From positions 1 through 55,181 of the forward strand of contig JBAYIZ010000007.1 of assembly GCA_041665405.1 (NCBI GenBank): a DNA stretch of 55,181 nt, given 5' to 3'. Below, one piece after another: positions 170-3,267 of the stretch (the first letter of the stretch is position 1; every line of letters begins with the position of its first letter). Position numbers and translations under genes: made by a program. The stretch is from Candidatus Magasanikiibacteriota bacterium. GTDB lineage: Bacteria; Patescibacteriota; Patescibacteriia; Magasanikbacterales; GWA2-37-8. The notes below the pieces were generated by a model. That model was not told where the DNA came from, did not search any database, and was given only the letters and a program-made list of their open reading frames with translations.

Positions 170-907
170 TTATTTTTTAGTTGAACTTTTTTCCCAGAGA
201 TAATTAAAATATTTTATTATCGATTCGGCGGCAGCACGACTGCTGATATTAAATACCAACGGTGGTTCATCTTCGGGTAACATGATAGACAACTCATCTT
301 CGCAAACATTAAACCACATAGGCATTTCCATCCCTTCTGGTAAATATCTGGCTCCAGACAGTGGCGAAGAATTTCTGAAATCTACAAATTTTTGGTCGAC
401 GGTTCTATCATAGAGACCTTTAAAATACATTCCTTTTTTTATTCTTTGTTTGTGAAATTGTTTCCAATGTTTATCAAGTTCTGGTTGTACATTGTATTTT
501 GACGCGCCCATAACATAAATGGTTTTACCAGATGGTGCATCAAGTTTTTTAAAAGTGGCTCGAACAATCCCATCCAGTCCTTCATAAACTCCGATTTCGC
601 GTGGTATTTGTTTTTGTTTTTCTTTTAATTCGTTAGCTATTTCTTTGGCTAATTTCTTTTTTTGTTCAGCTTCATCCACTAGATGTGCAGGGTCATTTGC
701 AACAAATAGAAACACTCCTTTATATTCAATTTTGCTCACCAAATCTCGCCCAACCAGCTCGTCTAAAGATAAATATACCACACTTCTAGGTAAGCCGGAT
801 TCCTTTACCACCTCTCCTGCCTTGGCTCTTCCCAATTCCATCAGGGCTAAATAAACGGTGGTTAAATTTTTGGAAAATCCAAATTTTTTCAGTTTTGATT
901 CTATCAT
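170..907 (-). CDS. TrmB-like winged-helix transcriptional regulator
   Basis: 245-aa ORF. The N-terminus (LTTVYLALMELGRAKAGEVVKESGLPRSVVYLSLDELVGRDLV) looks like the TrmB-family HTH, followed by a coiled-coil linker and a C-terminal domain. Confidence 0.65.
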   Translation of the reverse strand: MIESKLKKFGFSKNLTTVYLALMELGRAKAGEVVKESGLPRSVVYLSLDELVGRDLVSKIEYKGVFLFVANDPAHLVDEAEQKKKLAKEIANELKEKQKQIPREIGVYEGLDGIVRATFKKLDAPSGKTIYVMGASKYNVQPELDKHWKQFHKQRIKKGMYFKGLYDRTVDQKFVDFRNSSPLSGARYLPEGMEMPMWFNVCEDELSIMLPEDEPPLVFNISSRAAAESIIKYFNYLWEKSSTKK

Positions 908-934: not shown

Positions 935-963
935 AATATACCATAATTAGCTAAATTTGTCAA
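935..963 (-). promoter_or_regulatory. Sigma70-like promoter of the TrmB-like gene, followed by a 6-bp inverted repeat (911-929)
   Basis: Minus strand reads TTGACA (963..958), N17, TATATT (940..935). TGTCCA-N7-TGGACA at 911-929 lies between the -10 and the ATG and is a possible operator. Confidence 0.5.
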
Positions 964-1026: not shown

Positions 1027-1055
1027 TTGACAAATCCATAAAGTTGTGATAATAT
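1027..1055 (+). promoter_or_regulatory. Sigma70-like promoter reading into GC-enriched island A
   Basis: TTGACA (1027-1032), N17, TAATAT (1050-1055). Divergent from the TrmB-like gene. Confidence 0.55.
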
Positions 1056-1167
1056 TAAATGTTTCATTATTGAAAAACAATGAAACAGCCCACAAAAGGA
1101 TAAATTATCCTGTTTCGATGAAAGTCGGGATGAAACGGGCTAACTCTTTCACAATTCTGAGGGCACC

Positions 1168-1530
1168 ATGGAACGCAAGGAATTTGAAGCGCGACTTTGT
1201 ACAATTCTTGGCCAGGACAGTTTGCCTGGTTGTATGAGTTGTTGTGTCCCATGCGAAATCTGGGAACCCATGTTTGGTCATGAGTACATTCTGGGAGGTT
1301 CCAAGTATGCGAAATGTCGATTGCAGACCTCTCGTAGTCCCACCAAACATCAGATGTCCGGGATCCTGTATCTGATCCATGATGTTGGTCTGGTTTGCGA
1401 GGAAGTTTTGTCTCCCAATGTCAATGGTGGAAAGGTCTTCTTGAGCAAAACTTGCCTCAGATGTATCAGTGGCACTGACTTCGTGGATGCTGTATTCGAG
1501 GCGATTGAGCGTAAGAAGGAGGTGCTGTGA
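1168..1530 (+). CDS. Hypothetical Cys-rich 120-aa protein (island A). Strand and coding status are uncertain.
   Basis: ATG is preceded by GAGGG. The promoter and terminator are on this strand, and codon position 1 is G-rich. However, a fully in-register antisense ORF (1105..1551, 148 aa, GTG start) is also open. Confidence 0.4.
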   Translation: MERKEFEARLCTILGQDSLPGCMSCCVPCEIWEPMFGHEYILGGSKYAKCRLQTSRSPTKHQMSGILYLIHDVGLVCEEVLSPNVNGGKVFLSKTCLRCISGTDFVDAVFEAIERKKEVL

Positions 1531-1634
1531 CTGAGTGTATTCGGGTCTCACTCACCCGCGTTGGTCGGCACGCAGTCCGACACTCATGCGTCTCCCGCTG
1601 GCACAATGCCAGCGGGATGTGGCATCGGCACTAA

Positions 1635-1700
1635 ACCATCGGCCTACTACATTAGAGTAAAAAATTTTTACTTTGATGTAGCCGATGGTTTTTTGTTTTT
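1635..1700 (+). terminator. Long imperfect hairpin plus T-run ending the island A transcript
   Basis: ACCATCGGC...GCCGATGGT arms followed by TTTTTTGTTTTT. Confidence 0.55.
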
Positions 1701-1773: not shown

Positions 1774-2643
1774 ATGCCAAAAGATAAATATACCGCCGTG
1801 TGGGTTTCACATACATCTATCTCCGATTGGCTCAAATGTCCGCGTGCTTATTATTTGAAAAATGTTTATCGTGATCCAGTGACTAAACACAAAATAAAGA
1901 TGATGTCACCGGCGCTGGCTTTGGGGCAGAGTGTGCATGAGGTGTTGGAATCATTATCTCAGTTGGCACGTGGTAGTCGATTTAGCGAACCATTACCAAC
2001 AAAATTTGAACGCGCTTGGGCAAAAGTAAAAGGTGAAAAAGGTGGTTTCACCAACGATGACACAGAATATGGATACAAAAAACGCGGATTGGAAATGTTG
2101 GCGCGTGTGTATAATCATCCTGGTCCGATAAATAATTTGTCGGTAAAAATTCAGATGGATTTGCCGTATTATTGGTTGAGTGAAGAAGATAATATTATTT
2201 TATGTGGCAAGGTGGATTGGTTGGAATATTTGCCAGACACGGATAGTGTACATATCATAGATTTTAAAACAGGAAAAATTCAAGAAGAAGAAAGTTCGTT
2301 GCAGTTGCCAATATATAGTTTGCTAGTTTCTAAATGCCAAAAAAGAAAAACCAGTAAGGCTAGTTATTGGTATTTGGCGGAAAATGATAATCTAACCGAA
2401 AAACAAATTCCTGATTTGGAAGAATCAGAAAAAAAGATTTTAGAAATTGCGCAAAAAATGAAAGTGGCGCGGCAAATAAATCGTTTCAAATGTCCAAATG
2501 GGGAAGAAGGGTGTTTCGCTTGTAAACCGTTTGAAGCTATATTAAAAAAAGAAGCGAAGTTGGTCGGGCAAGATGAATATGGAGCAGATGTGTATATAAT
2601 GGATAGGGCAGAGGAAGAAAATAGAGATGGGGAAATTTTGTAA
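1774..2643 (+). CDS. PD-(D/E)XK nuclease, Cas4/AddB-like, with a probable 4-Cys cluster
   Basis: 289 aa. GKVDWLEY...HIIDFKTGK (D...D/E-x-K) and LQLPIYSLL (QxxxY). One N-terminal Cys (WLKCPRAYY) plus C-terminal CPNGEEGCFACKP. Confidence 0.65.
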   Translation: MPKDKYTAVWVSHTSISDWLKCPRAYYLKNVYRDPVTKHKIKMMSPALALGQSVHEVLESLSQLARGSRFSEPLPTKFERAWAKVKGEKGGFTNDDTEYGYKKRGLEMLARVYNHPGPINNLSVKIQMDLPYYWLSEEDNIILCGKVDWLEYLPDTDSVHIIDFKTGKIQEEESSLQLPIYSLLVSKCQKRKTSKASYWYLAENDNLTEKQIPDLEESEKKILEIAQKMKVARQINRFKCPNGEEGCFACKPFEAILKKEAKLVGQDEYGADVYIMDRAEEENRDGEIL

Positions 2644-2645
2644 AC

Positions 2646-2712
2646 AAAAAAACCACTCGTTGCCAATAAGTTCAATGATTTAAACTCATTGGCATGGACG
2701 AGTGGTTTTTTT
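2646..2712. terminator. Bidirectional hairpin terminator
   Basis: AAAAAAACCACTCGT...ACGAGTGGTTTTTTT with inner TGCCAAT/ATTGGCA pairing. Flanked by an A-run and a T-run. Confidence 0.7.
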
Positions 2713-2766
2713 ATTCTCCTTCCAAGCCTGACCCCGACATAGTCGGGGTGTGCTGGGGGTGGGAGG

Positions 2767-3159
2767 CTACGGGCGCTTGTCGTCGACGGGATCATCGTCG
2801 CCATCATCGTCGTCGAGGGGGTCATTATCGTCATCCTCCTCGTCGTCGAATTCATCGACGTCGAACTCCTCCTCCTCATCCTCCTCGTCGTCTTGTTCTG
2901 TCGGACGCAACACGACGTGGCCGCGGTTCACTGCCAGCTTTCTAAGAGCGGCCCCAGCGACCAGTGGTCCGAACCCGAAGACGAGGAACACTGCCCCGCA
3001 GATCGCCATTTGATCCTGGTAATTGCGGAAGACGTCGACATCCTCCTCACCAACGACCCTCGTCAAGAGAACCACGAAGACGGTCGCACTGAGTGCAAGC
3101 ACCGCCGCTCCAATCCAGGACAGCACTCGACCGACGAGATGTATGGTCTTGGGCTTCAT
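2767..3159 (-). CDS. Hypothetical 2-TM membrane protein with a poly-acidic C-terminal tail (island B)
   Basis: 130 aa. Two hydrophobic helices, then TEQDDEEDEEEEFDVDEFDDEEDDDNDPLDDDDGDDDPVDD. G/C-ending codons. GC hairpin ACCCCGAC-ATA-GTCGGGGT (2731-2749) lies downstream. Confidence 0.6.
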   Translation of the reverse strand: MKPKTIHLVGRVLSWIGAAVLALSATVFVVLLTRVVGEEDVDVFRNYQDQMAICGAVFLVFGFGPLVAGAALRKLAVNRGHVVLRPTEQDDEEDEEEEFDVDEFDDEEDDDNDPLDDDDGDDDPVDDKRP

Positions 3160-3237
3160 TCAGCACCTGCCTTGATTCCAATTCAGAAAACTTTCCACGC
3201 TCATGCGCGGCCAGTCATTCCGAAGTTGATGTGACTT

Positions 3238-3267
3238 ATTCTAGCTAAATATTTAGCTCATTGTCAA
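3238..3267 (-). promoter_or_regulatory. Sigma70-like promoter for the island B gene, with a 16-bp perfect palindrome in the spacer
   Basis: Minus strand reads TTGACA (3267..3262), N18, TAGAAT (3243..3238). AGCTAAAT/ATTTAGCT at 3243-3258. Confidence 0.45.

Follow-up and report, generated by a model that had tools for sequence, protein, structure and literature searches.

Island A, a GC-rich stretch beside a TrmB-type regulator gene in a member of the Patescibacteria, is most probably a single-gene, plus-strand mRNA for a small and poorly conserved protein with cysteine motifs, as judged by comparison with related loci. It was studied within 55,181 nucleotides of contig JBAYIZ010000007.1 from a Candidatus Magasanikiibacteriota bacterium, hereafter termed the window; the DNA originates from a groundwater community (ENA ERZ27249449; Logan SRR6484324). 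The window as a whole is AT-rich (37.8% GC), and island A (approximately positions 1088 to 1632) forms a GC peak of 46-53%, compared with 24-38% on either side. A sequence-only reading of the same DNA had regarded both the strand and the protein or RNA nature of the island as undecidable by eye, and had offered a small Cys-rich protein with a structured 3' untranslated region (UTR), a sense/antisense pair, or a structured RNA. This undecidability holds for the window on its own, but not once related loci are compared. Among the three readings, the small cysteine-containing plus-strand protein with 3'-UTR hairpins fits best, and it is supported by the open plus frame, the similarity to a related locus (L015), synonymous codon changes, and a Shine-Dalgarno site followed by an ATG.

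In the scheme that we propose, transcription would start near position 1061 from a sigma-70 promoter, whose match and conservation are both observed. The transcript would open with a stem-loop that may protect its 5' end from decay, and a leader of about 105 nt would precede GAGGG and the ATG. The product, presumably a cytosolic protein of 120 amino acids, might bind a metal, most likely zinc, or be thiol-redox active via C22/C25 and C96/C99. The message would carry a GC-rich hairpin that may protect its 3' end, and it would finish at an intrinsic terminator. Judging by conservation, the TrmB-family protein probably controls both its own promoter and that of the unit via palindromes in the 260-nt intergenic region. 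The regulator and the small gene together would represent accessory DNA in a variable slot that extends from a tRNA-Leu(TAA) gene to a conserved nuclease gene.

The transcription unit and its small protein

The unit promoter on the plus strand (1027-1055) is of the sigma-70 type and consists of TTGACA (1027-1032), a 17-nt spacer and TAATAT (1050-1055), with a TG extension in front of the -10 element. It was thus correctly recognised from the sequence alone, and its exact 26-nt string occurs once in the window, with no occurrence expected by chance. Directly downstream, a 5' hairpin (1060-1087, plus strand) is located at the predicted transcript start, with a folding energy of -7.8 kcal/mol and a z-score of -4.2. 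An equivalent hairpin of varying sequence is found at the same position in six of seven loci (z -3.2 to -4.2). An alternative role as a palindrome that binds a protein is conceivable in principle, although the sequence varies between loci. The GAGGG noted before the ATG is a Shine-Dalgarno sequence (1159-1163, plus strand), which ends 4 nt upstream of the start codon at 1168; GGAG or GGAGG precedes the ATG in L015, L019, L020 and L022.

The 3' part of the unit contains a perfect, GC-rich hairpin of 11 bp (1593-1617, plus strand). Its arms CCCGCTGGCA (1594-1603) and TGCCAGCGGG (1607-1616) had been described as a perfect 10-bp stem, which the T1593-A1617 pair extends by one. GC-rich hairpins also follow the stop codon in L015, L022, L023 and L024 (z -3.4 to -5.6), and the hairpin of the window is their counterpart. 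The unit ends, as initially proposed, with a long hairpin (1633-1691) and a T-run that reaches position 1700, in which the stem is followed by TTTTTTGTTTTT. A stable stem-loop is thus present directly upstream of a U-run on the plus strand, as is typical of intrinsic terminators; read on the minus strand, only three T residues follow the stem. A simple terminator scan did not list the hairpin at 1633-1700, presumably because its stem and loop exceed the limits of the scan. The entire 3' region folds with a z-score of -7.5, owing to the 11-bp hairpin and the terminator. For the 3' UTR without the terminator (1528-1631), the z-score is only -2.0 and 5 of 200 shuffled sequences fold equally well, and the earlier description of this stretch as strongly structured is therefore too generous.

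The coding sequence (1168-1530, plus strand) encodes a protein of 120 amino acids with nine cysteine residues, rather than the 11 counted before, including the pairs C22-x2-C25 and C96-x2-C99. It is predicted as a gene by gene callers, as is its counterpart in L015. The L015 locus shares with the window a TrmB-like protein (82% amino acid identity), the same promoter, a 5' hairpin, GGAG plus ATG, a plus-strand ORF of 127 amino acids (counted from the ATG that is properly spaced after GGAG) and a GC-rich hairpin after the stop codon. BLASTP aligns the two small proteins over 89 residues with 26% identity (E 9e-4), and overall they share 29% of their residues. The Smith-Waterman score of 47 compares with 25±4.2 for shuffled sequences; in one set of 2000 shuffles 3 scored as high, and in another set of 3000 shuffles 5 did. 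The statistical support for homology comes from L015 alone (p about 0.002), which counts against our explanation. In a third locus, L020, whose TrmB-like protein is 58% identical, a plus-strand ORF of 136 amino acids occupies the equivalent position; its product contains an SLxxCxxC motif and has a comparable helix at the C-terminus. Neither of its pairwise scores reaches significance (p 0.35 and 0.13), and L020 was therefore rejected as a firm member of the family and is counted as a possible member only.

The best block between the window and L015 aligns FEARLCTILGQDSLPGCMSC with FESEIKAIFGQVSLGFCLNC. In this FE..I.GQ.SL..C..C block, five of the nine identical residues are encoded by different codons: Ile by ATT or ATC, Gln by CAG or CAA, Ser by AGT or TCA, and Cys, twice, by TGT or TGC. 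Such synonymous replacements at conserved residues are the pattern expected from selection on the protein. Nucleotide identities at codon positions 1, 2 and 3 are 0.47, 0.57 and 0.32, although this alignment was built on the plus-strand translation and is thus biased toward the plus frame. The plus frame is open in the window, L015 and L020, over 120, 127 and 136 codons, while every other frame encounters stop codons in at least one of these loci. The first CxxC motif is invariant in the three proteins; the second pair is CxxC in the window, HxC in L015 and differently placed in L020.

Beyond these loci, relatives are scarce. The 120-aa protein has no match in Pfam, NCBIfam, PHROGs, PADLOC or the sequences of the PDB, and a word-indexed search of 5.8 billion clustered proteins returned no relative. 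An exhaustive HMMER search of 1.84 billion representatives added one match only, P0002, which was rejected because it is a short and weak match summed over about ten near-identical repeats of an unrelated 1977-aa protein. No relatives of the island were found in phages and plasmids, at either the DNA or the protein level. Exact-motif scans of viral contigs gave no match, nor did a profile scan based on the three small proteins. The single-sequence AlphaFold model of the 120-aa protein has a pLDDT of 48.8 and is thus too poor for a fold search.

The TrmB module and its genomic setting

The divergent neighbour of the unit is a gene for a 245-aa regulator (170-907, minus strand), which the sequence-only reading had rightly called TrmB-like. 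It matches the TrmB family PF01978 (E 2e-13), with its winged-helix domain scoring 50.3 bits against a cut-off of 25.6, and its nearest solved structure is 3QPH, a TrmB-family global regulator. Besides the window's own protein, 26 homologues with 40-82% identity were found, and DNA was obtained via these homologues for nine loci in all. A scan of GTDB genomes with the TrmB-like protein gave one locus, which ends at a contig end, and L003 is 100% identical to the window and thus adds nothing. No paper in the literature library that was searched pairs TrmB with Patescibacteria or the Candidate Phyla Radiation (CPR).

The intergenic region has a common architecture in the nine loci, consisting of TGTyC-N9-GrACA, the -10 and -35 elements of the TrmB promoter, TTGGCT/TTAGCT-N6-AGCC and the second promoter. 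In the window, the first element is the palindrome TGTCC-N9-GGACA (911-929, unstranded), which separates the TrmB promoter from the start codon of the TrmB gene and is recognisable in all nine loci. Its arms vary, with a change in one arm often matched in the other (TGTCC/GGACA versus TGTTC/GAACA), and the palindrome is imperfect in some loci; it may be either an operator or a hairpin at the 5' end of the TrmB mRNA. The TrmB promoter (935-963, minus strand) is a TG-extended TTGACA-N17-TATATT, and its -35 element (TTGTCAA on the plus strand) is invariant in the nine loci. Just upstream of the -35 element of the unit, the imperfect palindrome TTGGCTAAAATAAGCAAT (1002-1019, unstranded) is a candidate binding site of the TrmB-like protein; TTGGCT/TTAGCT-N6-AGCC sequences occupy the equivalent place in the aligned loci. 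The second promoter has the consensus CTCTTGACAAGTyCTAAAAAATrTGATAAT in the nine loci, with the conserved motif CTCTTGACAAGTYCTAAAAAATRTGATAAT, and TTGACA and TGATA of the unit promoter are invariant in the intergenic alignment. About 78% of the aligned intergenic nucleotides are identical between the window and L015. The recurrence of one architecture in nine loci indicates that the unit promoter is real and conserved. The sequence-only reading was thus right about the unit from promoter to terminator and about its connection with the TrmB-like gene, both of which are conserved in the nine loci.

Different genes are located behind this promoter. In L016, L017, L022, L023, L024 and L025 it precedes a 163-aa protein of a clearly conserved family (score 566 for L016 versus L022), and a gene with a PEP-utilizers domain is called downstream of the 163-aa gene in L016, L017, L024 and L025. 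In L022, the hairpin is followed by an ORF that agrees with the beginning of the downstream ORF of L024. The protein encoded in L019 has 274 amino acids, a receiver-like N-terminal part and CxxCxGxG repeats, and in the P0134 locus a Fic-domain gene comes after a 102-aa gene. The window protein was compared with the 163-aa and 274-aa genes as possible relatives, and no relationship was found. In L019, a second GC-rich ORF (approximately 1080-1310, upstream strand) starts 14 nt past the stop codon of the 274-aa gene and is cut short where the contig ends, and some units thus appear to hold more than one gene. The 163-aa gene of L023 contains an in-frame TAG (approximately 2230-2240, minus strand; ..MTP*GRE.. 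instead of the ..MTPEGRE.. of its relatives), which could reflect a pseudogene, a sequencing error or recoding. A PemK gene directly follows the TrmB gene in L024 (2477-2881). Such toxin-type neighbours, PemK in L024 and Fic in the P0134 locus, fit an accessory-genome setting.

All genes measured behind the promoter are GC-rich through their choice of codons. GC content at third codon positions (GC3) reaches 0.73 in L019 and 0.78 in L024, against 0.38-0.48 in the adjacent TrmB genes, and is 0.60 and 0.49 in the small ORFs of L015 and L020. Between the window and L015, the TrmB-like proteins are 82% identical and the small proteins only 29%, yet GC3 is high in both. It is conceivable, though we hold it to be rather unlikely, that in Magasanikbacteria-like members of the CPR the TrmB-like regulator and its divergent promoter serve as a conserved "expression dock", behind which the gene has been repeatedly exchanged. 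Equally tentative is the suggestion that the contents of such a dock are unrelated proteins (the 120-136-aa CxxC proteins, the 163-aa proteins and the 274-aa receiver-like protein with DnaJ-type zinc fingers), with a 5' hairpin before and mostly a GC-rich 3' hairpin after the gene. The dock genes have GC3 values of about 0.5-0.78, and other genes of the same genomes are clearly lower (about 0.3 in the window). Two origins of this GC-richness are conceivable: the genes may be imported from a GC-rich outside pool, for instance from the hosts of these episymbionts or from a mobile element, or there may be selection for GC-rich coding, for example for mRNA stability or translation rate.

Downstream of island A, the window encodes a Cas4-like PD-(D/E)XK nuclease (1774-2643), for which a homologue search returned 6257 sequences at E<=1e-20, some of them named Candidatus Magasanikbacteria or Patescibacteria. 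The nuclease gene adjoins rpoB in the long relative loci that were fetched, which suggests a housekeeping role rather than a defence role in this lineage. Its upstream side is variable; the slot was delimited as 57-138 and 139-1688 in the window, 1-170 in L005, 2866-4000 in L007 and 2196-2814 in L013. In L005 and L006, of which L006 originates from the same sample as the window, the nuclease is 93% identical and tRNA-Leu(TAA) is located directly upstream of the nuclease promoter region; positions 139 to 1688 of the window, approximately, have no counterpart there. The slot contains an EamA-like gene in L013 (nuclease 91% identical) and two other small genes in L007 (83%), and none of the syntenic loci found via the nuclease gene contains island A. 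The empty slot in the closest relative indicates that TrmB and island A form a strain-specific accessory block of about 1.55 kb. A tRNA-Leu remnant at 1562-1606 was considered as a mark of the integration site and dismissed as chance-level similarity, since 152 of 500 shuffles score as well.

The window contains a second GC-rich island, island B (2694-3240, 57-60% GC), which separates the nuclease gene from rpoB. Its plausible gene (2767-3159, minus strand) encodes a protein of 130 amino acids that has two hydrophobic helices and whose long tail is acidic; the gene caller of the source record placed there an Arg/His/Pro-rich plus-strand ORF (2694-2945), which looks spurious. The corresponding slot of L005 carries a different GC-rich two-helix ORF on the minus strand, without DNA similarity.

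Alternative readings of island A

The view of island A as a structured non-coding RNA of approximately 630 nt, or a dual-function RNA in which the ORF is incidental, would be in line with a GC-rich island in an AT-rich genome, with its GC-richness being maintained across loci, with the hairpins at both ends and with the whole-unit fold (z -3.95). The minus strand, however, folds as well or better (z -4.79), and the signal therefore comes from a few strand-symmetric hairpins. Within the ORF, folding is indistinguishable from that of shuffled sequences (z -0.31; 39 of 100 shuffles are equally good), such that the structural signal is confined to the terminal hairpins. Rfam 15 contains no family that matches 1027-1700 at E<=1, at gathering score the whole window yields four tRNAs only, and ARAGORN detects no tmRNA; known classes such as RNase P, tmRNA and other large RNAs were discarded on these grounds. 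Moreover, conserved amino acids with replaced synonymous codons are unexpected for an RNA, and the genes behind this promoter elsewhere, namely those of the 163-aa family, clearly encode proteins. The RNA proposal of the sequence-only reading is therefore abandoned, and we consider such an RNA very improbable. Elsewhere in the window, sub-threshold Rfam matches to mir-3051 and STnc250 are located at 2637-2719 and 133-243; they coincide with ordinary terminator hairpins, one of them bidirectional between the nuclease gene and island B, and are attributed to chance. Even less credible, and close to dismissible, is the idea that the minus-strand ORF (1105-1551; 148 aa, GTG start) is the real gene, or that both strands code as an overlapping sense/antisense pair. 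The two ORFs do lie in the exact antisense register that had been pointed out (1551-1170 = 381 = 3x127), the minus frame is open across 148 codons, GC3 fails to separate the strands as stated (0.50 versus 0.51), and in L015, too, the antisense strand contains long open frames (160 and 122 amino acids). But the fully open minus frame of L015 is in a different register, and the same-register frame contains no stop codon in the window, two in L015 and three in L020. The minus-strand translations of the window and L015 have no similarity beyond chance (p about 0.4-0.7), and the proposed pair is not supported. The minus ORF lacks a promoter-like site upstream and a Shine-Dalgarno site, and its start falls within the plus-strand 3' UTR. 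Its frame is open because the plus-strand gene contains no TTA, CTA or TCA codons. Thus, the minus-strand ORF is judged not to be a gene and is apparently a by-product of the codon make-up of the plus-strand gene.

A further alternative accepts the plus-strand frame and takes the island for expressed foreign DNA in decay, that is, an acquired gene or remnant whose frame is still open but whose selected function has been lost. The codon usage of the ORF is indeed foreign, with a GC3 of 0.50 compared to 0.26-0.38 in 27 host genes, and this also counts against our preferred explanation. The near absence of homologues, the location in a strain-specific block that is missing from a 93% relative, and the TAG codon of L023, by which decay does occur in the TrmB module, point in the same direction. 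Neutral DNA, however, would be expected to drift toward the GC3 of the host, which is not observed; the frame is intact across 120 codons, the N-terminal motif is retained with synonymous changes relative to L015, and promoter, Shine-Dalgarno site and terminator are undamaged. Decay of a foreign gene is therefore regarded as improbable, and a functional mRNA for a small cysteine-motif protein remains the preferred reading.

The preferred reading has consequences for annotation. GC-rich islands of AT-rich CPR genomes are not necessarily structured RNAs, an antisense ORF such as the one at island A should not be called, and the conserved promoter with its TrmB neighbour provides a rule for finding the real gene. 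The gene itself is of modest biological interest: it belongs to the accessory genome of an uncultured lineage of Patescibacteria, and its small product with cysteine motifs is nearly an orphan. The more interesting by-product is the conserved regulator-promoter module with its differing, persistently GC-rich genes. Should gene capture, or selection for GC-rich coding, lie behind it, the module would be informative about the way in which such reduced symbionts take up foreign genes and bring them under control.

Comparison with known systems

Shadow ORFs on the antisense strand of GC-rich genes are a known artefact of gene calling. The minus-strand ORF of the window resembles them, because it is in exact antisense register, owes its length to a sense gene without TTA, CTA and TCA codons, and is not conserved. 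It differs in that it occurs in an AT-rich genome and arises from one locally GC-rich gene.

Stem-loops at the 5' end stabilise bacterial mRNAs, as exemplified by the ompA leader in E. coli and by aprE or ermC in B. subtilis. Similar to these leaders, the hairpin of the window is located a few nucleotides from the start of the transcript and recurs in related loci with differing sequence, but the transcription start of the window is a predicted one. With its two CxxC pairs, of which the first is conserved in L015 and L020, the small protein is reminiscent of zinc-ribbon-like proteins; it differs from them in lacking a sequence or profile match to any such family or structure, and in L015 the second pair is H-x-C.

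The cassettes of integrons consist of a promoterless ORF and a hairpin-forming attC site and are expressed from a fixed promoter. The TrmB module likewise presents a fixed promoter in front of interchangeable, unrelated ORFs, most of which are followed by a perfect hairpin. In contrast to integrons, no integrase gene is called in the flanks of any locus examined, the module holds one gene per site instead of an array, and its hairpins share no sequence. In the loci with the 163-aa protein, moreover, the operon continues with a conserved host-like gene.

In Thermococcus and Pyrococcus, TrmB adjoins its target operon, the genes of the trehalose/maltose transporter. The protein of the window is bacterial (Patescibacteria), has 245 amino acids with an uncharacterised C-terminal part, and its presumed targets are small GC-rich genes instead of sugar transporters. 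Despite these differences, both systems have in common a winged-helix regulator that adjoins its presumed target, with conserved palindromes in the intergenic region.
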